From assembly GCA_037384205.1 (NCBI GenBank), contig JARROF010000010.1, positions 1,978-65,977 of the forward strand: DNA of 64,000 bases. The letters are read 5' to 3'. Made by a program: the position numbers and the translations under genes. Below are positions 41,872 to 60,599 of the stretch, in pieces. Below the pieces are notes generated by a model. That model was not told where the DNA came from, did not search any database, and was given only the letters and a program-made list of their open reading frames with translations. Source of the stretch: Novosphingobium sp. Lineage in GTDB: Bacteria > Pseudomonadota > Alphaproteobacteria > Sphingomonadales > Sphingomonadaceae. Every line of letters starts with the position of its first letter. Position 1 is the stretch's first letter.

Positions 41872-43839
41872 ATGCACCCAGTCAAAGGCTTCCTGAGACG
41901 CCTGTTCCGCGATGCCGCGGGTAACATATTGCCGCTTGCCGCGGTTGGCATGGTCGTTGCCGCCGCCGTTGTGGGATCGGCAATCGACATGAGCCAGGCC
42001 TATCGTATCGACAATCGCCTGCAGGCGGCGTGCGACGCAGCCGTGCTGGCCGGCCGGCATGCTGTGACCAACAATGGCCTGGACGACGCGGCAAAGACGG
42101 CGGCGAACAACTTTTTTGCCACAAACTTCAGCGACGATGCCGAAAAGACGACCGGCACGCAATTCACGCCTTCCTCGGATGATAACGGCGTGACTGTCAA
42201 GGGCGTGGCGTCCACGACTTATTCCACGCTGGTCATACGTCTGTTCGGCTATACATCGTTCCCGCTTTCGGTTTCCTGCACTTCGTCGATGGGGGTCGGC
42301 AATTCCGACGTAGTACTGGTGCTCGATACCACCGGATCGATGGGCAGCAACATCACTTACGGACAGACTCGTCTGCAGGCGCTGCAGGCGGCGATGAAGA
42401 ACTTCTACACGACCCTTTCGACGGCCACTTCGGGGTCGAATGCGCGCATTCGCTATGGCTTTGTGCCGTACAGCACGACCGTGAATGTGGGGCGCCTGCT
42501 CTATGCCCAGAATCCGGACTATATTGCGGACAAGCATACTTATTCGTCGCGTAAGGCAGTCTACAAGACGGTTGTATCGGGCACGCCGACATACAGTAAT
42601 GAACAGACCGGCAGCAGCTGGACGGACTATAAAGGCGGATACTGGCAAAGCAGCGATTGCCAGGACGATCTGCCTGCCGTGAGCAGCACTTATATCGACA
42701 AGGGTGCCGCGACGACGTCCTCACCCTCGACGACGACCAGCAGTTCCGGCCAAACGGTTACAACGGTAACGACCACGCAGCCGCAGATCCAGATCACGGC
42801 CGCGCAGTGCGCATCGTACACTGCGTCGTCCTGGTGGGGTGACTACACCGCTTACAAGATCCAGATAAAATACAACTCGCGCGACACGACGACTACGACC
42901 ACTTACGGGTACGATGCCGTGACAGGCAGTGTTTTCGATCATTTCGATTACATGCCGGTCGAATACGATACCAGCACCTACAAGACCTTCGCGTCGGTTT
43001 CGACGCTGACGGGAAATGCCTATGCAGGATCAAGTCGGCCCGGCACGGTGACGTCGACCTGGAATGGCTGCATCCACGAGCGCCGGACAGAATCCGCCAG
43101 CAGTTTTAGCTATTCAAGCCTGACCGGGATTTTGCCTTCCGACGCGCTCGATATCGATATCGATACGGCACCGGATATCAACGACGAGGGCACCAAGTGG
43201 GCGCCGATGTGGCCGCAGATCGTCTATAATCGCTATGCCACGACAACCGATGATTGGGGCAGGACGAGCCGTTCGGCCACTACCGGCACTGGCGACTATG
43301 GATACACGGTCTCATCTCCTTGCCCTGCTGCCGCGCAGGGGCTGAAGGAAATGGATCAGACCGATTTTGACGCCTATGCCGATTCGCTGAATGCAACGGG
43401 TAATACCTACCTCGATATCGGCATGATCTGGGGAGGGCGCCTGCTTTCGCCGGAGGGTATTTTCTCCGGCACTGTAAACGAAGCGCCCGCAAACGGGGGC
43501 AAGGTGTCCCGCCATATCGTGTTCATGACCGACGGCATCATGCAGCCGAACAACTCGATCAACGAGGCGTGGGGCCTGGAATGGTGGGACCGCAATGTCA
43601 CGGATGACGGCAGTTCCAATGACACCGCGCGTCATACGTCCCGGTTCCTGACTACCTGCTCGGAGATCAAGTCCAAGGGTATCCGGATCTGGGTAATCGC
43701 ATTCACCTCGGGTCTTTCGAACGATCTTAAGACCTGCGCGTCGGACGACAGCTCGTTTACCGCTGGCAATGCCGATGAACTCAACAATGCCTTCCAGGAA
43801 ATCGCCAAGCAGGTTGGCGAACTGCGAGTGACATCGTAA
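41872..43839 (+). CDS. TadG-like Flp-pilus-associated protein with vWA domain (655 aa)
   Basis: The N-terminal TadE/G-like hydrophobic segment is 'GNILPLAAVGMVVAAAVVGSAIDMSQAY'. The vWA MIDAS motif is 'DVVLVLDTTGSMGS', with 'IVFMTDG' and 'IRIWVIAF' further on. Ser/Thr-rich linkers are present. Confidence 0.8.
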   Translation: MHPVKGFLRRLFRDAAGNILPLAAVGMVVAAAVVGSAIDMSQAYRIDNRLQAACDAAVLAGRHAVTNNGLDDAAKTAANNFFATNFSDDAEKTTGTQFTPSSDDNGVTVKGVASTTYSTLVIRLFGYTSFPLSVSCTSSMGVGNSDVVLVLDTTGSMGSNITYGQTRLQALQAAMKNFYTTLSTATSGSNARIRYGFVPYSTTVNVGRLLYAQNPDYIADKHTYSSRKAVYKTVVSGTPTYSNEQTGSSWTDYKGGYWQSSDCQDDLPAVSSTYIDKGAATTSSPSTTTSSSGQTVTTVTTTQPQIQITAAQCASYTASSWWGDYTAYKIQIKYNSRDTTTTTTYGYDAVTGSVFDHFDYMPVEYDTSTYKTFASVSTLTGNAYAGSSRPGTVTSTWNGCIHERRTESASSFSYSSLTGILPSDALDIDIDTAPDINDEGTKWAPMWPQIVYNRYATTTDDWGRTSRSATTGTGDYGYTVSSPCPAAAQGLKEMDQTDFDAYADSLNATGNTYLDIGMIWGGRLLSPEGIFSGTVNEAPANGGKVSRHIVFMTDGIMQPNNSINEAWGLEWWDRNVTDDGSSNDTARHTSRFLTTCSEIKSKGIRIWVIAFTSGLSNDLKTCASDDSSFTAGNADELNNAFQEIAKQVGELRVTS

Positions 43840-44456
43840 TGGCTGGGCACCATCCATACAGTGCCAGGCTGCGCTGGCGTCTGGCCGGTTTGCACAAGGC
43901 CCGGGATGGTGCGACCATTGTTGAATTCGCGCTGGCCGCGCCGGTGTTTTTGATGGTGCTGATCGGCATCTTCGATGCCGGTTACATGGCTTATGCCACA
44001 GGTGTCCTGCATGGTGCGGTTCAGGAAGCGGGGCGTAATTCCTCGCTGGAAACGGCGGATACTTCTGCTGCCGATGCTTACGTTACGGGCGTCATGCAAG
44101 GCGTGCTGCCGGGCGCTGTGGTGACGACAGCGCGCACGAGCTACTACGACTTCAGCGACATCGCTCGGCCGGAAGCGTGGAACGATGCCAACAACAGCGG
44201 CACCTGCGACAACGGCGAGAGCTACACCGACGAGAACGGCACCGGGCAATGGGATGCCGATATCGGTGCATCCGGCAACGGTGGCGCCAACGATGTCGTT
44301 GTCTATACTGTGACCGTTACCTACACGCCGGTATTTCCGAACCCGTTCCTTCCCGGAACCGGAGGGACGCGCAAGCTGACAGCATCAACCGTGAAGAAAA
44401 ACCAGCCGTTTGCGAACCAGCAGGCCTATGGGGCGGCTGCCGGGACATGCAACTGA
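43839..44456 (+). CDS. TadE-like pseudopilin family protein
   Basis: TadE N-terminal motif 'DGATIVEFALAAPVFLMVLIGIFDAGY'. The start overlaps the upstream stop (TAATG). Confidence 0.75.
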   Translation: MAGHHPYSARLRWRLAGLHKARDGATIVEFALAAPVFLMVLIGIFDAGYMAYATGVLHGAVQEAGRNSSLETADTSAADAYVTGVMQGVLPGAVVTTARTSYYDFSDIARPEAWNDANNSGTCDNGESYTDENGTGQWDADIGASGNGGANDVVVYTVTVTYTPVFPNPFLPGTGGTRKLTASTVKKNQPFANQQAYGAAAGTCN

Positions 44457-45088: not shown

Positions 45089-45660
45089 TCCCTTCCAGGC
45101 ATCCGCCGGAGCGATCAGTCCTGTCGATCCGCACGACGTTGGGCGAGATATGCTGCATTTCATTCCCGTCTACGCGACTTCCGACAAAGACCATGGACGA
45201 TCCCACCGCGCTCTCCGCCAAAGGGCGCGACAAGCTGGTCAATCACGCGGAAAATCTGGCGTCTGCCACTCCATCGATCTTGTGCAACTGCGAAGAAGTA
45301 CTTGATCGGAGACCCTGCCGGCGGGGGTGTCCGGCGGTAGAAAAGCCCGATTTTCGGGCCCGTATTTGGGAAGTGACACGGCATCGCACTACCTCCTGGC
45401 ACCGGCCGGGCAGGTAGGGGCAGGGACAATGGCGCCGCGGATCAAGGAATTGGAACACGCAACGACAAAGTCCGGTTTGCCGGTGTGTTTGGCGGCGTGC
45501 GATATTCTTTACGACTGAAGCGATAGGTGTTCGTTTTTCTGCATTGCAACAAGGCTGCAATAATGCACGGTAATGGCAGTCGGGGGCTAGCCGGTGCAAC
45601 GCTACCGATTCTGCTGTCCGGAACTAAGCGGTCAAAGACTTGCCATCTCAGGGGAACGGC

Positions 45661-48600
45661 ATGAGCAACAATGTGTTTATCAACGAGATTCACTACGACA
45701 ACGCCGGTAGCGATACGGGCGAGGCCATTGAAGTCGCAGGTGTTGCGGGAACAGACCTGACCGGCTGGAGCCTGGTGCTGTACAACGGCAATGGCGGTAG
45801 TGCCTACTCGACGGTCAGTCTGACCGGCGTGCTCCCCGACCAGGATAGTGGTTATGGCACGCTGTCGTTCCCGATTTCCGGTATCCAGAACGGTGCGCCC
45901 GATGGTTTCGCGCTTGTCGATGCCGGCGGGAACGTGATCCAGTTTCTGTCCTATGAAGGCGCGTTTGCCGCTGTCGGCGGCGCCGCGGACGGGATGATGA
46001 GCACGGATATCGGCGTGGCCGAGACTTCGTCCACACCGGCTGGGTATTCGCTCCAGCTTACCGGAACCGGGACGCAGTATTCCGATTTCACCTGGGCCAG
46101 TGGGGCGGTCGATACGTTCGGCAGCATCAATGGCGGCCAGAGCTTCGGCACTGTTTCGGGCCCGCAGCCGGGCACACTTTCGATGGCCGATGCCTCGATT
46201 GCCGAGGGGGACAGCGGTTCGACAGACATGGTCTTCACCGTCACTCGCACCGGCGGCAGCGACGGTGCGGTTTCGGCCGACTGGTCGCTTACCCTGGGAA
46301 CGGCGGACAGTTCGGATCTAGGTGCCGGTGCTGCGCTTTCCGGCACCGTGAACTTTGCCGATGGAGAGATTTCCAAGGAAATCCATGTTCCCATCGCCGG
46401 TGATACCGCTTTTGAAGCAGATGAGACGTTCACGATCGATCTGGCGAACGCGCAGGGCGGAGCCGCGCTGGGGCAGGCAAGCGCGACCGGCACGATCATC
46501 AACGACGATACCGCCCCCGCCACGGGCCCCGCGAACCTGTGGGTCAACGAAATCCATTACGATAACTCCGGGGCTGACACGGGCGAAGCGATCGAGATCG
46601 CGGGCATCGCCGGTACCGATCTGACCGGGTATTCGCTGGTGCTCTACAATGGCAGCAATACGCCCGATGCCGCGCCCACATATGGCAGCCCGATCGCGCT
46701 GTCCGGCGTGATCGATGACGAAGGGCAGGGCTACGGCGCGGTGGCTTTCGATCTTCCGTCCAACGGACTTCAGAACGGCGCGGCGGACGGATTCGCGCTG
46801 GTCGCGCCCGACGGCTCGGTGGTGCAATTGCTCTCCTACGAAGGCACTTTCACGGCGGCTCCGGGAACACCGGCAGCGGGCATGACCAGCACCGATATCG
46901 GCGTTTTCGAAAGCAGCGGCCCTGTCGGTCAGTCGCTCCAGCTCACTGGCGCGGGCGCCGTCGCTGGGGATTTCGCCTGGCAGAATGACGCTGTCAGCAG
47001 CTTCGGTTCGCTCAATGCCGGGCAGACGATCATCGGCGATTTCGATACCGGACAGGTCTTCGTATCGGACGTAGCCGTGGCGGAAGGCGACAGCGGCGCG
47101 ACTGCGATGACTTTCACCGTGCACCGCGCGGGCGGCCTCGGCCAGAGTGCCGGGGTGGATTACCAGATCGCTCTCGACGGCACAGCCAATGCGGCCGATC
47201 TTGCCCCGGGCGCGGTGCTTGCCGGGCATGTCGATTTCGCCAAGGGTGTATCCGCCGTGACCGTCTCGGTGCCGGTACAGGGCGACACGCTGGGTGAGGA
47301 TAACGAGACGCTCTCGATCGCGCTCTCGAACCCGAACGGAAATATCGAGATCACCGGCGCCAGCGCTGTGGGCACGATTGTCAACGACGATCCGATTGCG
47401 CTTTCGATCATGCAGATCCAGGGCGCCGGGCATTATTCGGACTATGTGGGGCAGTCGGTCTCGACGACGGGCATCGTCACGGCCGTCGATAGCAACGGCT
47501 TCTACCTTCAGGACGCTTCGGGCGACGGCGATGCGGCAACGTCTGACGCTGTCTTCGTCTTCACCGGCAGCGCGCCTGTTGTGACCGTGGGCGATGGCGT
47601 TTCGGTGAGCGGTACGGTCAGCGAATACGCAGATGGCCTGACTTCGTTCGATCCGCAGCACGATGGCATCGACTTCTGGGAATCGCTGGAAGGCATGCGG
47701 GTGACGATCGAGGACGCGCAGGCGGTGGGCAACACCAACCGGTACGGCGAAACCTGGGCCGTCGCCTCTAACGGCGAAGGTGCCACCGGCATCAACGATC
47801 GCGGGGGGCTGACGCTTTCGGAAGGCGACAACAATCCGGAACGCGTGATCATCACCGCGGACAGCGGCATCTATGCGGGCTACAATCCCGATCACACGAT
47901 CGGCGATCAGCTCGGCGATGTCACCGGCATTCTGACTTACGGCTATGACACGTACCGTCTGGCCGTGACCGAGGATGTCACGGTGCAGAACGACACCACG
48001 CTGACGAAGGAAGTGACCGATCTCGTCGGAGACAGCAACTTCCTCAGCCTCGCGACCTTCAACCTGGAAAACTACGATCCGGGCGACCAGAAGGACGGCG
48101 TGCTGGCCGGCGAGATCGTCAATCACCTCGGCGCGCCGGACATTATCGCCGCGCAGGAAATTCAGGATGCCGATGGTTCCGGTTCGGGCTCCGATCTGTC
48201 GGGCACGGTCACGGCGCAGGGCCTGATCGATGCGATCTATGCGCAGTCGGGCCTGCACTATGCCTATGTCGAAGTCGCGCCCGACGAGGCCAATTCGACC
48301 GGCGGCGAGCCCAACGGCAATATCCGCAGCGGCTATTTCTACAATGTCGACCGGGTGAACTACGTCGATGGCAGCGCCGCGCTGATCCCGGGCGATACTT
48401 ATTACCACAGCCGCAGCCCGCTGGTGGCGCAGTGGGAGTTCGCCGGTTCGACAGTCACGACCGTGGACGTGCACTTCTATTCGCGCGGAGGCAGCGATCC
48501 GGCATGGGGCGATACCCAGCCTGCTGCCGATGCCGGAGATGACCGCCGCACCGCGCAGGCGGCCGGGGTGAAGGACTATGTCAGCAACCTGCTGGCGGAC

Positions 48601-50058
48601 GATCCCTCGCGTAATATCGCGATTCTGGGGGACTGGAACGGCTTCTCCTGGGAAAATGCCCAGACCCAGCTCACCGATCCCGCGCAGGGCGGGGTGTTCA
48701 CCAATCTCAACACGCTGATCCCCGAAGAAGAGCGCTATTCCTACTACTATCAGGGCAATTCGCAAGAGATCGACCACATCCTCGTGACGGGCGGGCTGCT
48801 GCAGAACGCGCAGTACGATTCGGTTCACCTTAATGCCGAGTTCGACAACACCGACCGGCCGACCGATCACGATCCGCAACTGGCACTGCTAATGCTGGGT
48901 CAGGCGCCTTCCGATCTTGTGCTCTCGAACGCTGATGTCGCTGAGAACATGGTGGCAGGCACTATCGTCGGCACGCTTTCGGCCACCGACACTGCGAACG
49001 ATACGCTGACTTATGCGCTGACCGACGATGCAGGTGGGCTGTTCGCGGTCGATGCCGCCTCCGGCGTGATCACCACGACGGCGGCGCTCGATCACGAAGC
49101 ACTGGCCGCCTACACGATCACCGCAACGGCCACCGATACCGGCGGGTTGAGCACCAGCAGCGATTTCGGCATCGCCGTCACCAACGTCAATGAAACGCCA
49201 GTGGGTGAAGCGGATGCCGTTGCCATCGACGAGGATGCGGTAAGTCCCAATTTGTGGACGCAACTGCTAGGCAACGATCACGATCCGGATGCGGGCGATA
49301 CGCTGGCGATCAGCGCGGTCGATACCGCCGGGACGCTGGGCACGGTCACGTTCGACGCGGCGACGCAGACGCTGACTTATGCCGCCGACAACGACGCCTT
49401 CGACTACCTCGCCACCGGCGATACCGCGACGGACACTTTCACCTATACCGTGACCGATGCCGACGGGCTGACCAGCACGGCAGTTGTCACGATGACAGTC
49501 ACTGCGATTGCCGACGGCGTGGTCAAGCACGGCGGCTGGCGCTGCGACACCCTCTACGGCACCGCCGGTGAGGACAAGCTGTTCGGCGGCTTCGGCAAGG
49601 ACAAGCTCTACGGTCTTGACGGGCATGACGAGCTGCATGGCGGTTTCGGTTCGGATCTGCTCGATGGCGGCACGGGCAACGATGCGCTTTATGGCGGCAC
49701 GGGCAACGACACCATGATCGGCGGGGAGGGGCATGACACCTTCCATTTCGGCTGGCTGGGCGGCCACGATACCGTGACTGATTTTAACACCAGCGAGGAT
49801 ACGATCGTTCTCGAAGACGGGGAGTGGATTGCCCATTCGCGGGTCCGCGACGTCAATCACGACGGCGTGAAGGATCTGGTCCTGACGCTGGGGCTCGGCA
49901 CGTCTGTAACGTTGCTGGGCGTCAGCGATATCGATCAGGTCTCGATCGAAGGCGACAATGGCCATCATGGTCATAATGGCCACCACGGTTTCTCCTTCGG
50001 TGGCCTGTTCGATCATATCGGGCTTGGCCGGGCGTTCGATTTTAGCCACGGCTTTTGA
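45661..50058 (+). CDS. Giant RTX-type secreted multidomain protein with ExeM/NucH-like endonuclease/exonuclease/phosphatase (EEP) core
   Basis: No signal peptide is present. The domain order is as follows. LTD-like 45670-46132 ('FINEIHYDN…GEAIE'). Calx-beta 46171-46509. Second LTD 46534-47025. Second Calx-beta 47048-47391. OB-like region 47395-48009. EEP domain 48037-48897 ('ATFNLEN', 'IIAAQEIQD', 'TDHDPQ'). Cadherin-like 48916-49200. Second Ig/cadherin-like 49201-49509. Seven GGxGxDxUx nonapeptides 49552-49740. I chose ATG 45661. Confidence 0.85.
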   Translation: MSNNVFINEIHYDNAGSDTGEAIEVAGVAGTDLTGWSLVLYNGNGGSAYSTVSLTGVLPDQDSGYGTLSFPISGIQNGAPDGFALVDAGGNVIQFLSYEGAFAAVGGAADGMMSTDIGVAETSSTPAGYSLQLTGTGTQYSDFTWASGAVDTFGSINGGQSFGTVSGPQPGTLSMADASIAEGDSGSTDMVFTVTRTGGSDGAVSADWSLTLGTADSSDLGAGAALSGTVNFADGEISKEIHVPIAGDTAFEADETFTIDLANAQGGAALGQASATGTIINDDTAPATGPANLWVNEIHYDNSGADTGEAIEIAGIAGTDLTGYSLVLYNGSNTPDAAPTYGSPIALSGVIDDEGQGYGAVAFDLPSNGLQNGAADGFALVAPDGSVVQLLSYEGTFTAAPGTPAAGMTSTDIGVFESSGPVGQSLQLTGAGAVAGDFAWQNDAVSSFGSLNAGQTIIGDFDTGQVFVSDVAVAEGDSGATAMTFTVHRAGGLGQSAGVDYQIALDGTANAADLAPGAVLAGHVDFAKGVSAVTVSVPVQGDTLGEDNETLSIALSNPNGNIEITGASAVGTIVNDDPIALSIMQIQGAGHYSDYVGQSVSTTGIVTAVDSNGFYLQDASGDGDAATSDAVFVFTGSAPVVTVGDGVSVSGTVSEYADGLTSFDPQHDGIDFWESLEGMRVTIEDAQAVGNTNRYGETWAVASNGEGATGINDRGGLTLSEGDNNPERVIITADSGIYAGYNPDHTIGDQLGDVTGILTYGYDTYRLAVTEDVTVQNDTTLTKEVTDLVGDSNFLSLATFNLENYDPGDQKDGVLAGEIVNHLGAPDIIAAQEIQDADGSGSGSDLSGTVTAQGLIDAIYAQSGLHYAYVEVAPDEANSTGGEPNGNIRSGYFYNVDRVNYVDGSAALIPGDTYYHSRSPLVAQWEFAGSTVTTVDVHFYSRGGSDPAWGDTQPAADAGDDRRTAQAAGVKDYVSNLLADDPSRNIAILGDWNGFSWENAQTQLTDPAQGGVFTNLNTLIPEEERYSYYYQGNSQEIDHILVTGGLLQNAQYDSVHLNAEFDNTDRPTDHDPQLALLMLGQAPSDLVLSNADVAENMVAGTIVGTLSATDTANDTLTYALTDDAGGLFAVDAASGVITTTAALDHEALAAYTITATATDTGGLSTSSDFGIAVTNVNETPVGEADAVAIDEDAVSPNLWTQLLGNDHDPDAGDTLAISAVDTAGTLGTVTFDAATQTLTYAADNDAFDYLATGDTATDTFTYTVTDADGLTSTAVVTMTVTAIADGVVKHGGWRCDTLYGTAGEDKLFGGFGKDKLYGLDGHDELHGGFGSDLLDGGTGNDALYGGTGNDTMIGGEGHDTFHFGWLGGHDTVTDFNTSEDTIVLEDGEWIAHSRVRDVNHDGVKDLVLTLGLGTSVTLLGVSDIDQVSIEGDNGHHGHNGHHGFSFGGLFDHIGLGRAFDFSHGF

Positions 50059-50177
50059 TCCGGCTCTTTCAGCCGTCTGGAAATCGGCAGGGCCGCGCGG
50101 TACATTATCGTGCGGCCCTGGCTTGTTTTCCGGACTTGTCTCACGGCCTCTGATCCCGCCTACCAGGACTTCGTTTT

Positions 50178-51938
50178 GTGACGTTTCTTGAACCCGCCGG
50201 CGAAGCGCTGAGCAGCGCGCTGTCGTCCTGCCGCCGGCATCTCGGCGCGGTCGCCCTGTTCAGCGCGCTGGTAAATCTGCTCTACATCGTACCCACGCTC
50301 TACATGTTGCAGGTCTATGACCGCGTGGTGCCGACCGGTGGATTGCAGACGCTGGCGTTCCTCACGCTGGTGCTGCTGCTGGCGCTTGGTACGCTGGCGC
50401 TGCTGGACCGGCTGCGCAACCGGCTGCTGGTGCGGGCCGGGCTGCAACTCGACATCGATCTGGCCCCGCGTATTCTCGATGCCTCGTTCGCCCGCCCGCA
50501 GATGGCCGAGGCCCGTGCGGCGCTGCGCGATTTCGATACCTTGCGCGGTGCGTTGTCCGGTCCGGCGTTCATTGCGCTGTGTGATGCGCCCTGGCTGCCG
50601 GTCTATATCCTCGTCTGCGTGGTGATGAGCCCTTGGATCGGTCTTGTCGCGCTGCTTGGCTGCGTGGTGCTGCCGTTGATTGCCTGGGCCAACGAGCGTG
50701 CGACCGGCGCACGGCTGGCACAGGCGCGCACGATCGCCGGGCTCACCAACCTGCATCAGGATGCCGCGCTCGCGGGCGGAGAAGCGGTGCGCGCCCTGGG
50801 CATGCGCCGTGCGCTGGTGGCGCGTACGATGCGACAGCGCCGCGCGATGCTGACCAGCCAGACCGAAGCGGGTTTCGCGGCGGGCAATTATGTCACGCTC
50901 ACCAAGTTCGTGCGCCTCTCGCTGCAATCGCTGGCGCTGGGGCTGGGCGCACTGCTGGCGGTGGAAAAAGAGATTTCGCCCGCAGCGATTTTCGCGTCTT
51001 CGTTCCTGATCGCCCGCGCGCTTTCCCCGATCGAACAGCTTATCGCCCACTGGAAGACCGTTCATGCCGCGCGCGCGGCATGGCGCGATCTTGACGTGCT
51101 GCTGGCCTCGGCGCCGAAGATGCAGGCCCCTACGGCCTTGCCTGAGCCCAAGGGCACGGTGGCGCTGGAGAGCCTCGTCGTGCTTGATCCCTCGCGCAGC
51201 GCTGCCGTGCTGCAAGGGCTTTCGCTGAATATTGCGGCAGGGGAAACTCTGGCGGTAATCGGTCCCAGCGGCGCGGGCAAGTCCACACTCGTGCGTGTGC
51301 TTTCCGGCGCCGTGCGGCCCGACCGCGGCGTCATCCGCATCGACGGGGCGGATATGGCCGACTGGGATGCAGAGCGGCTCGCTGTGCATATCGGCTATGT
51401 CCCGCAAGCGCCGACGCTGTTTGCGGGAACGGTCGCTGAAAACATCGCGCGCTTTTCCGGAGAAACCGGCATGGCGCGCGATGCTCTGGATGCAGCCGTG
51501 GTCGAAGCGGCGCAGAAGGTGGGTGCGCATGACATGATCCTGTCGCTGCCGGGGGGCTATGATCACCGGCTGGGCGCCGATGGCAGCGGGCTGTCGGCCG
51601 GGCAGGCCCAGCGGGTGGCGCTGGCCCGCGCCGTCTTCGGCAATCTTGCGCTGCTCATTCTGGACGAGCCGAATGCTCACCTTGATTCCGAAGGTGACGC
51701 GCAGCTTATCGAAGCGCTCGGCGCGCTTAAGCAGGCGGGCACGACGATTGTCGTCGTATCGCACAAGATGGGAATCTTGCCGGTGGTGGATCGTATCCTT
51801 GTGCTGCGTGAAGGCCGTGCGGCCCTGCTTGGCCCGCGCGAGGAAGTCATGGCCAAGCTCGCGCCGCCGTCACCGCGCCCGCGCATGGTTGGCGGGCAGG
51901 ATAATGCGGGCAGCCTTAATATCGGGGGCGGCGCATGA
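50178..51938 (+). CDS. Type I secretion system permease/ATPase (PrtD/AprD type, no C39 domain)
   Basis: The TM domain has 'LYMLQVYDRVVPTGG'. Walker A 'GPSGAGKST', signature 'LSAGQAQRVALARA', Walker B 'LLILDEPNAHLD'. GTG start. Confidence 0.9.
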   Translation: MTFLEPAGEALSSALSSCRRHLGAVALFSALVNLLYIVPTLYMLQVYDRVVPTGGLQTLAFLTLVLLLALGTLALLDRLRNRLLVRAGLQLDIDLAPRILDASFARPQMAEARAALRDFDTLRGALSGPAFIALCDAPWLPVYILVCVVMSPWIGLVALLGCVVLPLIAWANERATGARLAQARTIAGLTNLHQDAALAGGEAVRALGMRRALVARTMRQRRAMLTSQTEAGFAAGNYVTLTKFVRLSLQSLALGLGALLAVEKEISPAAIFASSFLIARALSPIEQLIAHWKTVHAARAAWRDLDVLLASAPKMQAPTALPEPKGTVALESLVVLDPSRSAAVLQGLSLNIAAGETLAVIGPSGAGKSTLVRVLSGAVRPDRGVIRIDGADMADWDAERLAVHIGYVPQAPTLFAGTVAENIARFSGETGMARDALDAAVVEAAQKVGAHDMILSLPGGYDHRLGADGSGLSAGQAQRVALARAVFGNLALLILDEPNAHLDSEGDAQLIEALGALKQAGTTIVVVSHKMGILPVVDRILVLREGRAALLGPREEVMAKLAPPSPRPRMVGGQDNAGSLNIGGGA

Positions 51939-53308
51939 GTTCGGAGCTTCCCGTGACGGGAGATGTCGTGGCTGCTGTCCATGATCCGGCGCGCGCGGCT
52001 GCGATCGCCGATCCCCGGCGGGATATCCGCATCGGTGTTGTAATCGCCTTTGTGTTCTTCGTCCTGTTTCTGGGCTGGGCAGCCTTCTTCCGGCTCGACG
52101 CGGCGGCGACGGCGCCCGGTGTGCTGGTTGTTTCCGGTGAGCGCCAGACGGTGCAGCATCGCGATGGCGGTGTGGTCGGCGCCATTCACGTGCATGAAGG
52201 GCAGATGGTGAGGAAGGGCCAGCTCCTGATCGAACTGTCCGCCCCTGAAGTGGCCGCGCAGGCTCATGCCTTGCGCGCGCAGGCAACGCAGCTTCTGGCG
52301 GAGCGGGCGCGGCTTGAAGCGGAGCAGGAAGATGCATCGAAGATCGTCGCGCCGTCTGAATTCGCGGCGCTTGGCGGTGCTGAAAAACGGGAAGCCGATG
52401 CCGCGCTGGCCCGCCAGCAGACCGAACTGCGCGAACGGCGTGCGGTACTGTCTGCCCAGCGCAGCGCGCTTCGCGAACGCATCGGGCAGTCCGGTCAGCA
52501 AGGGCGCGGCTACAGCGATCAGGCCGATGCGGCACGCGAGCAGATCCGCCTGATCAGTGAGCAGATCGCGGCCATGAAACCGCTCGCCGAGAAGGGGTTC
52601 GTCTCCAAGAGCCGGATGCGTGAACTGGAACGCGCGCGGGCGGCGCTGGAAGGGCAGCAGGGGCAGTACAGCGCCAGCGTTGCCAGCTCGCATGGTGCTG
52701 CCAGCGAGACGCGGCTGCAGATCCTTGAGGCGGAGCGCAGCTTCCACGAGCGTGCCGCTGCGGATCTGCGCGATGTCGAAACCCGTCTTGGCGATGTCCT
52801 TCCCAAGCTGGCCGCCGCTCGCGAACAGCTGGCCCGCACTCAGATCCGTGCACCGGCCTCGGGCGCCGTGGTCGGCCTCAGCGTCTTCACGCCGGGCGGG
52901 GTGATCGGTGCAGGGCAGCGATTGATGGATGTGGTTCCCGAGCGTCAGCCGCTGCGCATTGAAGTGCGAGTTGCGCCCGAGGATGCTGATGACCTGCAAG
53001 TGGGCAACAAGGCACTGGTGAAGTTCCCCGGCCTGCATGACCGCTCGCTGCCAGATCTGGAAGGCACGCTCACGCGTTTTTCCGCCGATAGCCTGACCGA
53101 TGAGAAGACCGGAACCCGCTATTTCACCGGAGAGGTGACAGTGCCCACCGATCAGCTCGACATCATCCGCAAGGCGCGCGGGCCGGATTTCGCGCTGCGG
53201 GCCGGATTACCGGCGGAGGCCTTGTTCCCGCTGCGCAGGCGCACGGCACTGGACTATGCGCTTGAACCGCTCGTAGGCAGTTTCTGGGGTTCGTTTCACG
53301 AACATTGA
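51935..53308 (+). CDS. HlyD family type I secretion membrane-fusion (periplasmic adaptor) protein
   Basis: ATGA overlap with the ABC gene. It has an N-terminal TM, long coiled-coil hairpin segments and a lipoyl/beta-barrel region ('IRAPASGAVVGLSVFTPGGVI'). Confidence 0.9.
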   Translation: MSSELPVTGDVVAAVHDPARAAAIADPRRDIRIGVVIAFVFFVLFLGWAAFFRLDAAATAPGVLVVSGERQTVQHRDGGVVGAIHVHEGQMVRKGQLLIELSAPEVAAQAHALRAQATQLLAERARLEAEQEDASKIVAPSEFAALGGAEKREADAALARQQTELRERRAVLSAQRSALRERIGQSGQQGRGYSDQADAAREQIRLISEQIAAMKPLAEKGFVSKSRMRELERARAALEGQQGQYSASVASSHGAASETRLQILEAERSFHERAAADLRDVETRLGDVLPKLAAAREQLARTQIRAPASGAVVGLSVFTPGGVIGAGQRLMDVVPERQPLRIEVRVAPEDADDLQVGNKALVKFPGLHDRSLPDLEGTLTRFSADSLTDEKTGTRYFTGEVTVPTDQLDIIRKARGPDFALRAGLPAEALFPLRRRTALDYALEPLVGSFWGSFHEH

Positions 53309-53823
53309 CGCCCGGCCTGCTTCAGGGTGAGCGGCAGTCCGGCTGCTACCAGCACCACTTCTTCCGCCAAAGCGGCGATGTGCTGGTTGAGACGCCCGGC
53401 CTCGTCGCGAAACCGACGCGCGAGGGCGTTTTCGGGGACGATTCCCATGCCCACTTCATTGGCGACCAGCGCGACAGGGATGGAATAGTCCTGCAAGGTG
53501 GAGACGAGGTCTTTCGTCATCGCTTCTACATCGCACTCCGCCAGAACGAGGTTTGATAGCCATAACGTGAGGCAATCGACCAGCACGGCGTTGGCGGACT
53601 GGGCGGCGTTGCGGATGGCACCGGGCAAGTCGACAGGCGCTTCAAATGTTTCCCAACGGGGACTGCGATCAGCCCGATGGCGGGCGATGCGGTCCTCCAT
53701 CTCCGCGTCGAACGCCTGGGCCGTGGCAATGAAGGCCAGTTGACCGGGCAGGGCTTCCATACGCGCCTGGGCATGGCGGCTCTTGCCCGACCGCGCTCCT
53801 CCGATAACAAACAGCACACCCAT
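53296..53823 (-). CDS. cobU: Adenosylcobinamide kinase / adenosylcobinamide-phosphate guanylyltransferase
   Basis: P-loop 'VIGGARSGKS' and 'ATAQAFDAEMEDRIARHR'. 175 aa. Confidence 0.9.
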   Translation of the reverse strand: MGVLFVIGGARSGKSRHAQARMEALPGQLAFIATAQAFDAEMEDRIARHRADRSPRWETFEAPVDLPGAIRNAAQSANAVLVDCLTLWLSNLVLAECDVEAMTKDLVSTLQDYSIPVALVANEVGMGIVPENALARRFRDEAGRLNQHIAALAEEVVLVAAGLPLTLKQAGRQCS

Positions 53824-53842
53824 GGGCCGGTCTCCTACAGCA

Positions 53843-54790
53843 TCACATCAGTGAGGCAACGACTCCGGTTGCGATCCATGCGAGCAGGCAGGCTCGCAGA
53901 TAGATTTTCCGGGCTTGCTCCACAGCGCAGAAATCCACCTTTCGCCCGTCCCCGATCCATGGTTTTTCCGACAGAATGCCGTCATAGCGAACGGGCCCTG
54001 CGAGACGGATGCCGAGCGTTCCTGCCATCGCCGCTTCGGGCCAGCCGGCATTGGGCGAGGCGTGCCGTCCGTGATCGCGCCACAGGATGCGCCAGCCGTT
54101 TCGTCCTGATCCCATGCCGGCAAGGCAGATCAGGATCCCGCTCAGGCGGGCCGGAATGAAGTTGGCGGCATCGTCGATCCGGGCGGCGGCCCAGCCATAG
54201 TCGCGCAAGGGTTCTTCCGGGTGGCCGATAAGGCTGTCGGCGGTATTGACGGCCTTGTACAGCCATATGCCGGGCAGGCCGAGCACGAGTAGCCAGAACA
54301 GCGGAGCGATTACGCCGTCGCAAAAACTTTCCGCAAGACTTTCAATCGCGGCGCGGGCCACGCCGGGCCGGTCGAGCGCGGCGGTATCGCGGCCGACGAT
54401 CATGCCCACGGCCTTTCGCGCGGCGGGCAGGTCGTTGCTGCCCAGGGCCTTCGCAACAGGTATGTAGTGGTCATATAGACTGCGCTGCGCCAGTGCGGGC
54501 CAGGCCATGAAGGCAAGCGGAATCCACGCCCAGGGCCCGGCCAGGGCTCGGATCATGTGTTCAACGGCAAACGCTGTCCCGCCGCTGACCAGTATCAGCA
54601 GCGCCATCGTGGCCACGCCGGACCGGCGCCGCCGGCAGGCCGCGTGGATGGGGCGGTTCCAGCGGGTTTCGCATGTCGCAATGATCCGCGCGAAGGTGCC
54701 GACCGGATGGCCGATCCGGCGGTAGAGCCAATCCGGCCAACCCAGCGCGCTGTCCAGTACCAACGCGCAAAGGGCAACAGGTTCAACCAT
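53843..54790 (-). CDS. cbiB: Adenosylcobinamide-phosphate synthase
   Basis: Polytopic membrane protein. 'LDSALGWPDWLYRRIGHPV' and 'PNAGWPEAAMAGTLG' are typical of CbiB/CobD. Confidence 0.9.
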   Translation of the reverse strand: MVEPVALCALVLDSALGWPDWLYRRIGHPVGTFARIIATCETRWNRPIHAACRRRRSGVATMALLILVSGGTAFAVEHMIRALAGPWAWIPLAFMAWPALAQRSLYDHYIPVAKALGSNDLPAARKAVGMIVGRDTAALDRPGVARAAIESLAESFCDGVIAPLFWLLVLGLPGIWLYKAVNTADSLIGHPEEPLRDYGWAAARIDDAANFIPARLSGILICLAGMGSGRNGWRILWRDHGRHASPNAGWPEAAMAGTLGIRLAGPVRYDGILSEKPWIGDGRKVDFCAVEQARKIYLRACLLAWIATGVVASLM

Positions 54791-55760
54791 AGCGGGCCCG
54801 GAAGGCCAGAGCAGCCCCCAGCCGGTCCAGCTGCGCGTTGTCTGCAGGCACGCCGAAGCGCATGAGATGCGGATAGTCCGCGAAAGGACGCGTCAGGATC
54901 TGCGCGCGGGCGAGTGAGGCAAATAGTTCCGCAGCACAGGGCGTGGCAGCAAGCCGGAACAGCGGGCAGGCACCTGTGGGGCGTAGTCCATGGTCCGCCA
55001 GAAGGGCGTCGAGCCGCGCTGCCCTTTCCGGCAGTCTGGCCCGGGTGGCTGCAATCCATTCGCTGTCGGCATAGGCTTGCATTCCAAAGGCCAGTGCGGC
55101 GGAGCAGACCGGCCAGTCGCCCTGCAGCTTGCGCAGTTCGGTCAGCAGCGGTTCGGGTGCGAGCACGAAGCCGAGCCGCACGCCGGCAAGTCCGAAGAAC
55201 TTGCCGAACGAGCGTGTCACGGCGAGGTTGCGGCCGTTCGCAACGAGGTCAGCCACGCTGGATTCGGGATGGCAATCGGCAAAGGCCTCATCCGCGATCA
55301 GCCATCCGCCGGAGTGCTGCTGCTGCCCCAGCGCGGAAACAAGGTATTCGCGCTGAAAGAGCCGTCCGTCCGGGTTATTGGGGTTGGTGACGATAAGGGC
55401 GTTCGGTCCGGTGTGGCCCGGTGGCGGGCTGCTGAAGGCCTGCGCATAAGCTCCGTATGTCAGGGGGACATGGCGGGCGGGAAGGTCGAGGATGCGGCCC
55501 AGCGCGCGCAGACCCGCCTCACTGCCCGGAACCGCACAGCACAGCGCCGGATCGACGCCGAAATAGCCGGCTGCGGTTTCTTCCAGGCGCATGAGCGCGT
55601 GCGGATCGGGCAGGGCGCGCCAGTCGGGCCGGACCGCGTCGGCACCAGGCCAGGGGCAGGGATTGATACCGGTAGAAAGATCGAGCCAGTCAGCGGGATT
55701 GCCGCCGAAGCGGGCACAGGCCTCGTTCAGACGGCCGCCGTGGGTGACGAATGAACTCAC
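54783..55760 (-). CDS. cobD: Threonine-phosphate decarboxylase (class I/II aminotransferase fold)
   Basis: 'HGGRLNEA…DLSTGINP' N-terminus and 'TNPNNPDG' motif. The PLP-Lys context is 'SFGKFFGLAGVRLG'. I chose GTG 55760 (GTGA overlap with the cobS stop). The 588-aa track ORF fuses it to antisense sequence. Confidence 0.85.
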   Translation of the reverse strand: MSSFVTHGGRLNEACARFGGNPADWLDLSTGINPCPWPGADAVRPDWRALPDPHALMRLEETAAGYFGVDPALCCAVPGSEAGLRALGRILDLPARHVPLTYGAYAQAFSSPPPGHTGPNALIVTNPNNPDGRLFQREYLVSALGQQQHSGGWLIADEAFADCHPESSVADLVANGRNLAVTRSFGKFFGLAGVRLGFVLAPEPLLTELRKLQGDWPVCSAALAFGMQAYADSEWIAATRARLPERAARLDALLADHGLRPTGACPLFRLAATPCAAELFASLARAQILTRPFADYPHLMRFGVPADNAQLDRLGAALAFRARYG

Positions 55761-56470
55761 CGGACGAGGACCAGCGCGGCCAGTGTAGCGGTTTCGACCA
55801 GTTCGATCCCGGCGCCGTGCCCATCGCCCGAAATGCCGCCGATCCTCCTGTGCAGCCAGAAGCCCCAGAAAGCCATGGCCGCCGTGGCCAGTAATAGCGC
55901 AGGCCCGGTCCACCATGCTGCGGCCCCGAGAAGGAATAGCCAGGCGGCGCAGACTGGCCAACTGGCCCCTGCGCCGAAGCTGGTTCCCATGCCCCTGTGC
56001 AGCGGCGGCAGGGTCAGCGCCCAGACCAGCGGCGCGATCCTTGCGGCCACCGGGATGGCGATCAGCGTTGTAACCGGAACTTCGTCCATAGCCAGACGCA
56101 GCAGGATCAGCTTGGCGATCAGTTGCAGGGCGATGGCGGTGACACCGAAGCTGCCTATATGCGGGTCCGCCAGAACCGCGGACAGCCGTTCCCGGTCGCC
56201 ATGGGCAGCCCCGGAAGCGTCGGCGATGTCGCCCAGACCGTCGAGATGCAGCGCCCCTGTGATCCCGATCCAGACCAGTAGCGCCGTCAGGGCACCGGTC
56301 CAGGGGGCATGGCGCAGGCCAATCCATGCCGCCCCGGCGAGACAAAGGCCCACCACGAAACCGGCTGCGGGGAACCAGCGTATCGCCCGCGCAAAGTCCT
56401 TTTCGCTCGCGGCGATGGCGGGGAGCGGCAAGTGCGTCATGAACTGAATCGCGAGGATCAGGGGTTTCAT
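55757..56470 (-). CDS. cobS: Adenosylcobinamide-GDP ribazoletransferase (cobalamin synthase)
   Basis: 'MKPLILAIQFMTHLP' N-terminus and 'HLDGLGDIADA' motif. Polytopic membrane protein. ATG 56470 overlaps the upstream stop (ATGA). Confidence 0.9.
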   Translation of the reverse strand: MKPLILAIQFMTHLPLPAIAASEKDFARAIRWFPAAGFVVGLCLAGAAWIGLRHAPWTGALTALLVWIGITGALHLDGLGDIADASGAAHGDRERLSAVLADPHIGSFGVTAIALQLIAKLILLRLAMDEVPVTTLIAIPVAARIAPLVWALTLPPLHRGMGTSFGAGASWPVCAAWLFLLGAAAWWTGPALLLATAAMAFWGFWLHRRIGGISGDGHGAGIELVETATLAALVLVR

Positions 56471-57045
56471 TCGCGGTATCCCGTTTCGAGAGCGATGATC
56501 TGGCCGGATAAGGGCTCTTCGGGCCAGATGCGCAGCGAGAGGAGCGCACGATAGGGAAGGTCGATGGCCCACCCTCCGCGATGATCCAGCCCGGTCACGA
56601 CCGAAAGCGCTGCCCGCATGGTTCCCGCATGAGTGACCACAAGCGTATCGCTTTTCAGGCCGGACAGGCCTGCGTGGACTCGTCGGCACAGGTCCGACCA
56701 GCGCTCGCCTTGCGGGGGCGGGTAGGTGTCAGGGTCGGCCCAGAAGCGGGAGAGGGCGGTCCTGTTGATCGCATCGGAGGCAAGGCCGTCCCAGGCGCCG
56801 AAATAGAGTTCGCGCCAGCACGGATCGCGCGTGAAGGGCACGTCGAGTTGCGCGGCGAGATACGCGGCCTGCATGCCGGTGCGGCGCAAGTCGGAACTGA
56901 CGATCCACCGCACCGGCAGATGGGCCACGCGTTCCAGCATGACAGGGCACTCTGCCAGCCGCGGCGGCTCGTCCAGATGGCCCAGCAGCAGGCCGGTCCT
57001 CTCGGGCGGCCCGTGCCGTAGCAAGTGGATGATGCGGGGGATCAC
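56467..57045 (-). CDS. cobC: Alpha-ribazole phosphatase (histidine phosphatase family)
   Basis: 'LLRHGPPE' contains the RHG catalytic motif, and 'VTHAGTMRA' is also present. GTG 57045 overlaps the cobT stop. Confidence 0.8.
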   Translation of the reverse strand: MIPRIIHLLRHGPPERTGLLLGHLDEPPRLAECPVMLERVAHLPVRWIVSSDLRRTGMQAAYLAAQLDVPFTRDPCWRELYFGAWDGLASDAINRTALSRFWADPDTYPPPQGERWSDLCRRVHAGLSGLKSDTLVVTHAGTMRAALSVVTGLDHRGGWAIDLPYRALLSLRIWPEEPLSGQIIALETGYRE

Positions 57046-58058
57046 GCGCCGCTGGCCACGGCAGCTTCAGCGAATGTCGCCATCTCGTTGTGCGCGGCGA
57101 GTGCAGCGCGTACGATGGGAACGGCGGCGGCGGCGCCCGATCCCTCGCCCAGCCGCATGTGCAACTGCAGCAAGGGCTCCAGCCCGAAATGGCCGAGCAG
57201 GCGGACATGACCGGATTCGGCGGAGCAATGCGCGGCGAGGCAATGGGCGGTGAGCTCTGGTACCCCCACCACCAGCGGGGCGATGGACGCGCAGGCGATG
57301 AAGCCGTCCAGCAGCACTGGAATGCGCATCAGCCGCGCGGCCAGGATCGCGCCTGCCATGGCCGCGATTTCGCGCCCGCCCAGGCGGCGCAGAGTCTCGA
57401 AGGCATCGCCGCAATCCGGCAGGTGCCGCGCCAGCGCCTGCTCCACGGCGCGGACCTTGCGGGCCACGCCTTCGCTGTCCAAGCCCGAACCCTTGCCGCA
57501 CCACAGCGCCGCCTCGCCGCCGAACGCGGCCGCGCACAGGGCGGAAGCGGGCGTGGTATTGCCGATCCCCATTTCGCCCACGAACAGAAGGTGCGTGTCT
57601 GGGCTGACAGCCGCGGCACCCGCATCGAGCGCGGCAAGGCATTCCGTCTCGCTCATGGCGGCTTCTGCGGAAATATCGCCGGTAGGCCGGTCGAGATCGA
57701 GCGGCACGACCGAAAGGTCCGTGCCGGACAAACGGCACAGGGCATTGATGGCAGCGCCCCCGGCCCGGAAGTTGGCCACCATCTGCTCCGTGACTTCCAC
57801 CGGAAAGGCGCTGACACCCTGTGCGGCGACGCCGTGATTGCCTGCGAAGACCACGGCCTGCACCCGGTCGATCCGGGGGCGCGGCGTGTCCTGCCATCCG
57901 GCCATGAACACCGCGATGTCCTCCAGCCGTCCGAGCGAGCCGGCGGGCTTGGTCAGTTCGGCCTGCCGTGTACGGGCGAGGGCGATGGCGGCGGCAGCGG
58001 GTTCGGGCAGGGAGGAAAGGGCCGCCGTGAAGGCGGTGCGATCGGCAAAGCGGATCAT
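57042..58058 (-). CDS. cobT: Nicotinate-nucleotide--dimethylbenzimidazole phosphoribosyltransferase
   Basis: 'LTKPAGSLGRLE', 'FAGNHGV' and 'GEMGIGNTT' motifs. I chose ATG 58058. Confidence 0.9.
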   Translation of the reverse strand: MIRFADRTAFTAALSSLPEPAAAAIALARTRQAELTKPAGSLGRLEDIAVFMAGWQDTPRPRIDRVQAVVFAGNHGVAAQGVSAFPVEVTEQMVANFRAGGAAINALCRLSGTDLSVVPLDLDRPTGDISAEAAMSETECLAALDAGAAAVSPDTHLLFVGEMGIGNTTPASALCAAAFGGEAALWCGKGSGLDSEGVARKVRAVEQALARHLPDCGDAFETLRRLGGREIAAMAGAILAARLMRIPVLLDGFIACASIAPLVVGVPELTAHCLAAHCSAESGHVRLLGHFGLEPLLQLHMRLGEGSGAAAAVPIVRAALAAHNEMATFAEAAVASGA

Positions 58059-58462
58059 GTGCAGAGGTATCCTTCGGGCGGCGTGCGGGTGATGAAGTGG
58101 CCCTTCACGCCATCGGGCCAATCGGCATAGCGCACCATGCCTTCCTTGCTGGCGGCATGGCGGGCGGCATATTCCAGAATGGCGCGGGCAGCCTCGCGGC
58201 CGGGCGTGAAATCGCCCAGCACGTAGCCGACCTTGCCCGCCGCGCGGATATGGATGACGCAATGGCGCTTGCAGGCGAAAAGGCAGGGCATTTCCTGCAC
58301 TGCCACGCCTGCAAGGTCCGGCTCTTCCTTCTGCACTGCCCGCAGGGTTTCGGCGAGCAGCGCACCGCCGCGCTGCCCGCTTTCGTCCTCGCGCGCGGCA
58401 GCGTTGAAACGGCAGGTGGAGCAGACCACCACCGCCGCTCCGGGCTCGACCGCGCGCAGCAT
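58055..58462 (-). CDS. DUF1636 family metal-binding (thioredoxin-like [2Fe-2S]-type) protein
   Basis: The 'VVCSTCRF…MPCLFACKRHC' cysteine pattern is present. Start and stop overlap btuB and cobT on either side. Confidence 0.7.
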   Translation of the reverse strand: MLRAVEPGAAVVVCSTCRFNAAAREDESGQRGGALLAETLRAVQKEEPDLAGVAVQEMPCLFACKRHCVIHIRAAGKVGYVLGDFTPGREAARAILEYAARHAASKEGMVRYADWPDGVKGHFITRTPPEGYLCT

Positions 58463-60396: not shown

Positions 60397-60599
60397 GGGA
60401 ATACAGTCCCTTCAAGCAAACGGCGTTTGCCCGTCGGTTGCATCCGGACGAAGGAACGGTCCCCGCTTGCCCGTGGCCGGGCCCGGCTGACGCCCCTCGC
60501 ACGGATCTGGCCGGCAAGGCGGTGGCTGTCGTTGCGCGAGGGGTGACCCTGCTTTTCGCAGGGCCCTCGAACACCCGGTGCACCCTGCCCGGATGAAGA

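Follow-up and report, generated by a model that had tools for sequence, protein, structure and literature searches.

The window analysed here is a stretch of 64,000 nucleotides (64 kb) of Novosphingobium sp. (contig JARROF010000010.1, positions 1,978 to 65,977, forward strand). Between its positions 45,661 and 53,308 it carries three genes in the same orientation, which encode a nuclease, a PrtD-type ABC permease/ATPase of a type I secretion system (T1SS) and a HlyD-family periplasmic adaptor (Table 1). The three genes probably make up an operon for a type-I-secreted, Ca2+-dependent extracellular DNase of the ExeM/SpnA type.

The nuclease is composed, from the N- to the C-terminus, of an LTD-like and a Calx-beta domain, both present twice, OB folds, an EEP catalytic core, two cadherin-like Ig domains, seven RTX nonapeptides and a tail of 103 residues. 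This is the order that had been claimed from the letters in a first-pass annotation of the window, and it was borne out in almost every detail by the Pfam and NCBIfam scans and by AlphaFold2. The open reading frame (ORF) that encloses the coding sequence (45640-50058, +) has a stop codon immediately 5' of position 45640, so that neither an N-terminal extension nor a hidden upstream signal peptide is possible. The start codon (ATG at 45661) is preceded by the Shine-Dalgarno-like sequence AGGGGA. The N-terminus reads MSNNVFINEIHYDN, and MSNNVFINE is the consensus start of the homologue family. The Kyte-Doolittle hydropathy of the first 75 residues, taken in windows of 15 residues, reaches a maximum of only 1.07, and the protein is therefore without a signal peptide. 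No hydrophobic segment is present at the C-terminus (...FDFSHGF), and a Sec signal combined with a GlyGly-CTERM, membrane or cell-wall anchor was not found. The description of a 1465-residue protein that lacks a signal peptide and starts directly in an LTD-like module is thus confirmed; its label as a giant nuclease can be taken only in a relative sense at this size. The protein is highly acidic, with 204 Asp and Glu against 30 Lys and Arg residues, a net charge of about -174 and one Cys. An acidic and Cys-poor composition is usual for T1SS cargo. The ORFs of the window were chosen greedily by length, and calling based on GC3 failed to split real from spurious ones.

The N-terminal array is a tandem duplication, as shown by the 52% identity (E 1e-86) between its two halves of 290 residues (1-290 and 291-580). 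The AlphaFold2 model of residues 1-290 (pLDDT 90.3) matches the Calx-beta domains of NCX1 and CALX at 32-33% identity with TM scores of 0.74-0.82, and the acidic clusters of these domains are nearly invariant across the nuclease family. The identity of the LTD-like domains rests on weak but consistent Pfam matches. The whole protein scores 37.5 bits against the Pfam LTD cut-off of 34.3, to which the two single copies (28.7 and 17.3 bits) do not come up; all 24 LTD-like segments of the nuclease and its relatives match LTD, with one stray weak match to another family. The LTD-like segments had no match in a profile search of the PDB, and the Foldseek search with residues 1-290 was dominated by the Calx-beta part. 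The duplicated LTD/Calx-beta array that had been annotated thus holds with regard to the duplication and to both Calx-beta domains, and its LTD calls are weak. In relatives, the number of units is one (L007), three (L011, L033) or four (L020, a Rhizobium metagenome-assembled genome (MAG)), a spread of copy number that indicates modular expansion of the array.

The OB folds and the EEP domain carry the assignment as a nuclease. The NCBIfam model ExeM_NucH_DNase (NF033681) matches residues 602-1059 on model positions 1-508 of 546 with 144.2 bits (E 6.2e-42). The nearest solved structure is that of SpnA from Streptococcus pyogenes (9SF8/9SF9), with an E-value of 2.7e-64 across the OB domains and the EEP domain. 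The structure of the core was also predicted, as had been proposed with the first-pass annotation: the AlphaFold2 model of residues 581-1085 (pLDDT 83.5, pTM 0.81) matches TDP2, DNase I, DNase1L3 and EEPD1 at E of about 1e-13 in Foldseek, and its matches also include nocturnin, in a deposited structure with NADPH bound as substrate. The nuclease has the motifs FNLEN, AAQEIQD and DHDP, whose key residues do not vary among 33 homologues. In SpnA, E592 was reported as a Mg2+ ligand, H716, D767 and D810 as catalytic and R696 and N769 as substrate-binding residues, with D842 also listed (PMC13601614). In a pairwise alignment, with the spacing verified by hand, these residues (E592, H716, D767, D810, R696, N769 and D842) correspond to E833, H938, D991, D1038, R918, N993 and D1069 of the window nuclease, and all seven are identical. 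The seven positions, together with N801, N804 and H1070, are invariant in the 33 homologues (54-84% identity); H1070 is also shared with SpnA. The claim of an EEP core with its catalytic Asn, Glu, Asp and His residues intact is well supported by this conservation.

Downstream of the core, both cadherin-like Ig domains are above their Pfam cut-offs, and exactly seven GGxGxDxUx repeats follow in register, starting at residues 1300, 1309, 1318, 1327, 1336, 1345 and 1354 (regular expression). The annotated count of repeats and the tail, given there as about 100 residues, are thereby confirmed. The nuclease is the sole ORF of the window with three or more RTX motifs. In its tail, a conserved post-RTX cap (DTVTDF..DTIVL..DLVLTLGLGTSVTLLGVS) is followed by a stretch rich in His and Gly and by the terminal FDFSHGF (codons 50035-50055). 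The His/Gly-rich stretch, GDNGHHGHNGHHG, lies at 49951-49989 (residues 1431-1443) and is not kept in the relative L004; it may be a metal-binding oddity.

The ABC gene begins 119 nucleotides downstream of the nuclease gene, and the start of the adaptor gene overlaps the ABC stop codon in ATGA, so that the two exporter genes are translationally coupled. The ABC protein scores 582 bits against the PrtD model TIGR01842 (cut-off 510). The match begins at residue 15, and the protein is therefore without an N-terminal C39 or C39-like domain (CLD). Its best match in the PDB is Aquifex PrtD (5L22), with 375 bits from end to end (5L22 aligned over 9-561). Escherichia coli HlyB is matched with 168 bits and aligned only from HlyB residue 159, and the LssB-type model TIGR03375 with 329.5 bits against a cut-off of 693. 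The adaptor reaches 349.1 bits against TIGR01843 (cut-off 208.65) and has Serratia LipC (5NEN) as its best match in the PDB. The exporter had been annotated as a PrtD-type ABC protein lacking C39 with a coupled HlyD adaptor, an assignment that both proteins uphold by scoring above curated NCBIfam cut-offs.

The order of nuclease, ABC and adaptor genes recurs in the loci labelled L001, L004, L006, L062, L086, L087, L089 and L090. These belong to Sphingobium limneticum (L001/L002), a metagenomic relative with 81% identity (L004/L005), S. psychrotolerans (L006), S. koreensis (L062), S. gei (L086), S. naasensis (L087), Sphingomonas sp. LM7 (L089) and an uncultured Sphingomonas (L090). Together with the window they represent at least four unrelated gene neighbourhoods, and the conserved linkage argues that the nuclease is the cargo of the exporter. 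The linked nucleases end in FDFSHGF (window), VDLAHGF (L004), FDSGHGL (L001), LDLAHGF (L006), IDSLHF (L062), VTLGHGF (L086), VDFGHGF (L087) and PLLAHGF (L089), with IDTGWF in L090 as the exception. The unlinked nucleases (L003, L011, L013, L016, L019, L020, L021, L088 and L091) end in ADFVL, PALLF, FGLFL, LEYLA, AEVHAWP and others. A terminal H(G)[FL], as part of [D/E]-x-x-H-G-F or a close variant, is thus found in eight of nine T1SS-linked and in none of nine unlinked nucleases, which is to be read as a correlation and not as an independent test, the genomes being related and the counts uncorrected for phylogeny. The His-type ending is present in 46 of the 120 closest homologues.

Shorter nucleases of 935-973 residues are encoded at L008:8993-11797, L009:8996-11887 and L010:8996-11914 in S. 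trueperi, Sphingomonas sp. TREG-RG-20F-R18-01 and S. mollis, respectively. They consist of an N-terminal domain of about 210 residues without a Pfam match, one Calx-beta domain, the OB folds, the EEP domain and a tail of 55-93 residues; no RTX motif, cadherin domain or hydrophobic N-terminus was found in them. ABC and adaptor genes lie directly downstream, and their products score 704-734 and 595-602 bits against the ABC protein and the adaptor of the window. The three short nucleases are candidates for T1SS cargo without RTX repeats.

Two further observations were made in the related loci. In Sphingobium limneticum (L001/L002, 16214-20629), the adaptor gene is followed by the gene for a giant protein (> 1900 residues) with DUF4347, cadherin-like and He_PIG domains, a possible second cargo of that T1SS. 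In L091 (10148-12478), a serralysin-like RTX protein (Peptidase_M10_C and HemolysinCabind) adjoins the nuclease homologue, with no T1SS adjacent.

The RNA between the nuclease and ABC genes folds with z = -4.77 into a terminator-like hairpin, among the two local RNA structures of greatest stability in the 64 kb. Folds of -31 kcal/mol or lower were obtained for only four of 9136 segments of 50 nucleotides, and three of the four are this hairpin. Each of the seven other linked loci that were examined has an equivalent hairpin after the stop codon of its nuclease gene, with -24 to -38 kcal/mol. The hairpin of the window resembles the terminator between hlyA and hlyB. Its probable effect is to stabilise the transcript of the nuclease or to attenuate read-through, and either would favour the cargo over the transporter. 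What is new at this locus is that linkage to the exporter accompanies a conserved ...D-x-x-H-G-F C-terminus, and that a very stable hairpin separates the nuclease and ABC genes. Upstream of the nuclease, the block at 45533-45578 is the only part of the 5' region that is conserved in the 81%-identical relative L004. TGCAA occurs repeatedly within it at a spacing of 11 nucleotides, and the block may be a promoter or a regulator site.

Table 1. Features of the nuclease and exporter locus, with positions in the window
Feature	Positions	Strand	Evidence
Conserved upstream block TTTTTCTGCATTGCAACAAGGCTGCAATAATGCACGGTAATGGC, candidate promoter/operator of the nuclease operon	45533..45578	+	Conserved in two sequences, weak evidence
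Nuclease coding sequence, 1465 residues	45661..50058	+	ORF list, translation, Pfam/NCBIfam scans
LTD-like domain 1, residues 1-165	45661..46155	+	Pfam LTD 28.7 bits, under domain cut-off; AlphaFold2 all-beta, pLDDT 90
Calx-beta domain 1, residues ~172-285	46174..46515	+	Pfam above cut-off; Foldseek to NCX1 CBD1
LTD-like domain 2, residues 291-455	46531..47025	+	Pfam LTD 17.3 bits; internal duplication
Calx-beta domain 2, residues ~465-578	47053..47394	+	Pfam 29.3 bits against cut-off 27; internal duplication
OB-fold region (YhcR/SpnA OB3-OB4-like), residues 581-790	47401..48030	+	NF033681, SpnA alignment, AlphaFold2 beta-barrel-rich
EEP catalytic domain, residues ~795-1075	48043..48885	+	N801/E803/N804, E833, R918, H938, D991/N993, D1038, D1069/H1070
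Cadherin domain, residues 1085-1165	48913..49155	+	Pfam Cadherin 46.6-50.1 bits
Bacterial Ig/cadherin-like domain (Big_9, Cadherin_4/5), residues 1171-1281	49171..49503	+	Pfam above cut-off
Seven RTX nonapeptides, residues 1300-1362	49558..49746	+	Pfam HemolysinCabind 60-62 bits (cut-off 23); regular expression
C-terminal tail, 103 residues, presumed T1SS signal	49747..50055	+	Family consensus; terminal motif common to T1SS-linked homologues
Terminator-like hairpin, 15-bp stem, 10 G-C pairs, T-rich tail	50088..50130	+	Between nuclease and ABC genes; RNA folding
PrtD-type T1SS ABC permease/ATPase, 586 residues, no C39/CLD	50178..51938	+	TIGR01842; PDB match 5L22
HlyD-family T1SS periplasmic adaptor, 457 residues	51935..53308	+	TIGR01843; PDB match 5NEN

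The full architecture is abundant in the Sphingomonadaceae. More than 120 clusters of full-length homologues (50-81% identity) were found, nearly all of them from Sphingomonas, Sphingobium and Allosphingosinicella. Their database names are unspecific ('cadherin domain-containing', 'Ig-like', 'Calx-beta' and the like); one homologue at JGI is named 'predicted extracellular nuclease/Ca2+-binding RTX toxin-like protein'. Of the best 80 relatives of the OB-EEP part in a collection restricted to a single genome per species, about 41 have four or more RTX motifs C-terminal to the EEP domain. Among these are proteins from Rhizobium, Methylobacterium/Methylorubrum, Phenylobacterium, Rubrivivax and Inhella, and also from many Nostocales, other cyanobacteria and a Pyrinomonadaceae MAG; RTX tails were not found in the actinobacterial OB-EEP relatives of that collection. 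A search of 1.84 billion cluster representatives with the OB-EEP fragment gave 1711 relatives at E ≤ 1e-30, and 84 of the best 150 have at least four RTX motifs. Within the same 150, a hydrophobic N-terminus is present in one of 80 RTX-tailed and in 15 of 46 RTX-less proteins, and for this reason the RTX tail and the signal peptide look like alternative solutions for export.

The survey of the phylogenetic distribution that had been suggested with the first-pass annotation thus places the full architecture chiefly in Sphingomonadaceae and the RTX-tailed OB-EEP proteins in Alpha- and Betaproteobacteria and Cyanobacteria, and it bears on the statement made there that the architecture is not a characterised one. 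With regard to experiment the statement stands: no experimental paper on any RTX-tailed nuclease was found in the literature on RTX proteins, T1SS, nucleases, Sphingomonas and exoproteomes. As a claim of novelty it goes too far, in view of the more than 120 clusters of homologues, the wide occurrence of RTX-tailed OB-EEP proteins and a prediction from 2010. Predicted RTX nucleases are already listed in silico in the accessible parts of the review of Linhartova et al. 2010 (PMC3034196), which hold no domain-level description, experimental work or mention of Sphingomonas.

In the mechanism proposed for the operon, the 1465-residue nuclease would be synthesised in the cytoplasm without a signal peptide, and the PrtD-type ABC/HlyD pair would recognise its C-terminal tail, i.e. 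the post-RTX cap and the ...FDFSHGF ending. The protein would be threaded unfolded, C-terminus first, through a TolC-like outer-membrane channel whose gene is unlinked, and would fold outside the cell upon the binding of Ca2+ to the RTX block, to the cadherin linkers and to both Calx-beta domains. The folded OB domains would then hold nucleic acid, and the EEP domain would cut it by the two-metal mechanism of DNase I, SpnA and ExeM, with E833 binding Mg2+, H938, D991 and D1038 acting in catalysis and R918 and N993 contacting the substrate, together with D1069/H1070. The hairpin would keep the nuclease in excess over its transporter by stabilisation or attenuation. Activity is predicted to depend on Ca2+ plus Mg2+/Mn2+. 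The turnover of extracellular DNA for nutrients or the remodelling of the biofilm matrix would be its likely roles. The domain anatomy, the conservation of the catalytic residues, the class of the exporter and the conserved linkage are observed; from them we infer secretion itself, Ca2+ gating, the choice between release and surface retention, and the biological role.

Several points weigh against the reading as a secreted DNase. The 144 bits obtained with NF033681 lie below the curated naming cut-off of 300, so that the ExeM/NucH-like identity given in the first-pass annotation stands as homology over the OB folds and the EEP domain (E 6e-42) and not at the level of the family name. The Pfam EEP matches are marginal (23.5-27.6 bits). 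An adjacent T1SS is lacking in nine of the 18 full-length homologues examined, and a dedicated exporter is therefore not obligatory for the nuclease family. No outer-membrane factor (OEP/TolC) gene is present among the ORFs of the window that were scanned, nor was a candidate inhibitor or immunity gene found among them, both as had been annotated for the neighbourhood of the operon. No Pho box was found near the operon with a consensus of the E. coli/Sinorhizobium type, which gave matches at the chance level only and from which the sphingomonad PhoB motif may differ; a role in phosphate scavenging is therefore without regulatory support here, there being no Pho box upstream of the nuclease. 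That Ca2+-triggered folding makes an inhibitor unnecessary, as suggested earlier, through the low Ca2+ of the cytoplasm, is plausible and fits the absence of any conserved small neighbouring gene, but it is pure inference. The nuclease family, finally, appears to be known from its sequences alone. On balance, the conserved catalytic residues, the lack of a signal peptide, the RTX repeats and the linkage to an exporter favour the earlier suggestion of a Ca2+-dependent, T1SS-exported DNase as the best reading.

Of the other explanations, the one that makes the protein mainly a surface-retained RTX adhesin or biofilm-matrix protein is unlikely. Its LTD, Calx-beta and cadherin modules would bind the matrix or cell surfaces and its nuclease module extracellular DNA, with catalysis secondary or absent. 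The two cadherin-like Ig domains, with the four other beta-sandwich modules, do make up about 55% of the protein, a giant cadherin/He_PIG protein follows the related T1SS in L001/L002, and ExeM is cell-associated rather than released (PMC6085458). Against this, the catalytic and metal-binding residues are invariant in the 33 homologues, which implies selection for activity. The ABC protein is of the PrtD type without a CLD and far below the TIGR03375 cut-off, and the nuclease has no N-terminal retention module. The short relatives in L008-L010, moreover, retain the OB-EEP part and the T1SS without any cadherin module. A bacteriocin-like antibacterial nuclease toxin exported by the T1SS is very unlikely. 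The dedicated T1SS would agree with it and the accessory modules could bind receptors, though no result points specifically to it; an immunity or inhibitor gene is neither adjacent in the window nor conserved in the related loci, where the upstream region is unconserved save for the promoter-like block. No bacteriocin-type translocation or receptor-binding domain was detected in the protein, and its closest relatives, ExeM and SpnA, act on extracellular DNA.

It is more improbable still that the EEP domain cleaves a phosphoester other than nucleic acid, as a sphingomyelinase, phospholipase C or phosphatase, and that the protein is no DNase. The EEP superfamily is broad, the Foldseek matches include nocturnin with NADPH bound and the Pfam scores are marginal; yet it is characterised nucleases that are matched best (2.7e-64 for SpnA, 6e-42 for the ExeM/NucH model), the matches span the preceding OB folds, which are essential for the activity of ExeM, and the substrate-binding residues R696 and N769 of SpnA are kept as R918 and N993. 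Least probable of all is that the ABC/adaptor pair serves another cargo and lies beside the nuclease by chance, for which the homologues without an adjacent T1SS (nine of 18) could be cited. The nuclease is, against this, the sole RTX ORF in the window, the gene order is kept in at least four unrelated flanking contexts and beside the short RTX-less nucleases, and the linkage goes along with a specific C-terminal motif. An extension of the preferred reading, that of a secreted DNase, is entertained tentatively and is itself rather doubtful: nuclease and exporter would be a co-evolving cargo-transporter pair, with [D/E]-x-x-H-G-F as a private address tag, the RTX-less nucleases of L008-L010 exported as well, and Ca2+-gated folding in place of an inhibitor. 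If true, the address tag would amount to a specificity code for the selection of T1SS cargo and the Ca2+ gating to a strategy of self-protection for exported nucleases.

The window contains further genes around the operon. Directly upstream, at 41872-44456, are Tad-pilus accessory genes for a TadG-like protein (Tad and VWA domains, 655 residues) and a TadE-like protein (205 residues). A gene for a ComEC/Rec2 competence channel (Competence and DUF4131) lies at 16130-18358, 27 kb upstream of the nuclease. The Tad-pilus genes and ComEC were considered as partners of the nuclease and rejected, since neither is conserved beside its homologues. Downstream follows a cluster for cobalamin salvage/biosynthesis (53296-63775) with CobU, CobD, an aminotransferase, a CobT-like DBI_PRT protein, a TonB-dependent receptor and a CobQ/CobB-like amidotransferase. 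The genes from CobU to the TonB-dependent receptor (through 60396) are on the opposite strand, and that of the amidotransferase (62468-63775) is on the + strand. An ORF of 1053 residues at 2398-5559 (-) shows one hydrophobic segment and long Ala/Glu/Arg-rich repeats of coiled-coil appearance, and has no Pfam match.

Extracellular nucleases shape biofilm matrices, recycle the phosphorus of DNA and influence gene transfer. The characterised enzymes of the ExeM/NucH/SpnA type are exported by Sec and anchored to the cell; a large branch of the family, to judge from its sequences, uses type I secretion instead. This branch spans much of the Sphingomonadaceae, other Alpha- and Betaproteobacteria and many Cyanobacteria. 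Its exporter-linked subgroup in Sphingomonas offers a compact system of three genes in which to study cargo recognition by PrtD-type transporters, through the terminal HGF motif and the RTX-less variants, and a possible part of Ca2+-gated folding in protecting the producer from its DNase. The system in the window extends known principles and adds none.

Among known systems, the nuclease shares the order of a putative N-terminal LTD, YhcR-like OB folds and an EEP domain with ExeM of Shewanella oneidensis, NucH of Aeromonas and Xds of Vibrio cholerae. E521, H642, N699, D822 and H823 of ExeM correspond to E833, H938, N993, D1069 and H1070. ExeM was described as an endonuclease dependent on Ca2+ plus Mg2+/Mn2+, in which the OB and EEP domains are essential and the LTD is dispensable in vivo; it is not released from the cell and was located in the membrane fraction (PMC6085458). 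With 871 residues, ExeM has a Sec signal and a C-terminal hydrophobic anchor of the GlyGly-CTERM type, both of which are missing from the window nuclease, and it has none of the duplicated LTD/Calx-beta unit, the two cadherin-like domains, the RTX tail and the adjoining T1SS found here. SpnA is anchored to the cell wall. It has the alignment of OB3, OB4 and EEP and the seven functional residues in common with the window nuclease (PDB 9SF8/9SF9; PMC13601614), but is from a Gram-positive organism, lacks LTD, Calx-beta, cadherin and RTX modules and does not leave the cell by a T1SS. Its authors regard it as a virulence factor that interferes with complement (PMC13601614). NucH of Synechocystis (sll0656, phoA-nucH operon) is an extracellular nuclease induced by phosphate limitation (PMC1906773); it is likened here by its function, and many cyanobacterial OB-EEP relatives carry RTX tails.

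On the side of secretion, a likeness to giant RTX adhesins of the LapA type was considered and rejected, given the absence of an N-terminal retention module and an ABC protein without a C39-like extension (TIGR03375, 329.5 against 693 bits). The RTX exoenzyme systems PrtDEF, AprDEF and LipBCD (serralysins and the lipases of Serratia and Pseudomonas) share with the window the PrtD-type ABC protein and the LipC-like adaptor, and their cargo is likewise a hydrolase with C-terminal RTX repeats, acidic, with few Cys and no signal peptide. The window system differs from them in having a nuclease as cargo, with about 1300 residues of non-RTX modules, and no outer-membrane factor gene in the operon. 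An acidic and hydrophobic extreme C-terminus is typical of T1SS substrates of the Prt/Apr/Lip type; these end in D followed by hydrophobic residues, whereas the window nuclease ends in ...D-x-x-H-G-F. The rsaA-rsaD-rsaE genes of Caulobacter presumably offer a parallel, as an RTX cargo gene followed by a PrtD-type ABC and an adaptor gene with the outer-membrane components encoded elsewhere, and differ in that their cargo is an S-layer protein and not an enzyme. The system of the window is a variant of two known kinds, the ExeM/SpnA-type nucleases and the RTX exoenzymes with PrtD-type exporters.

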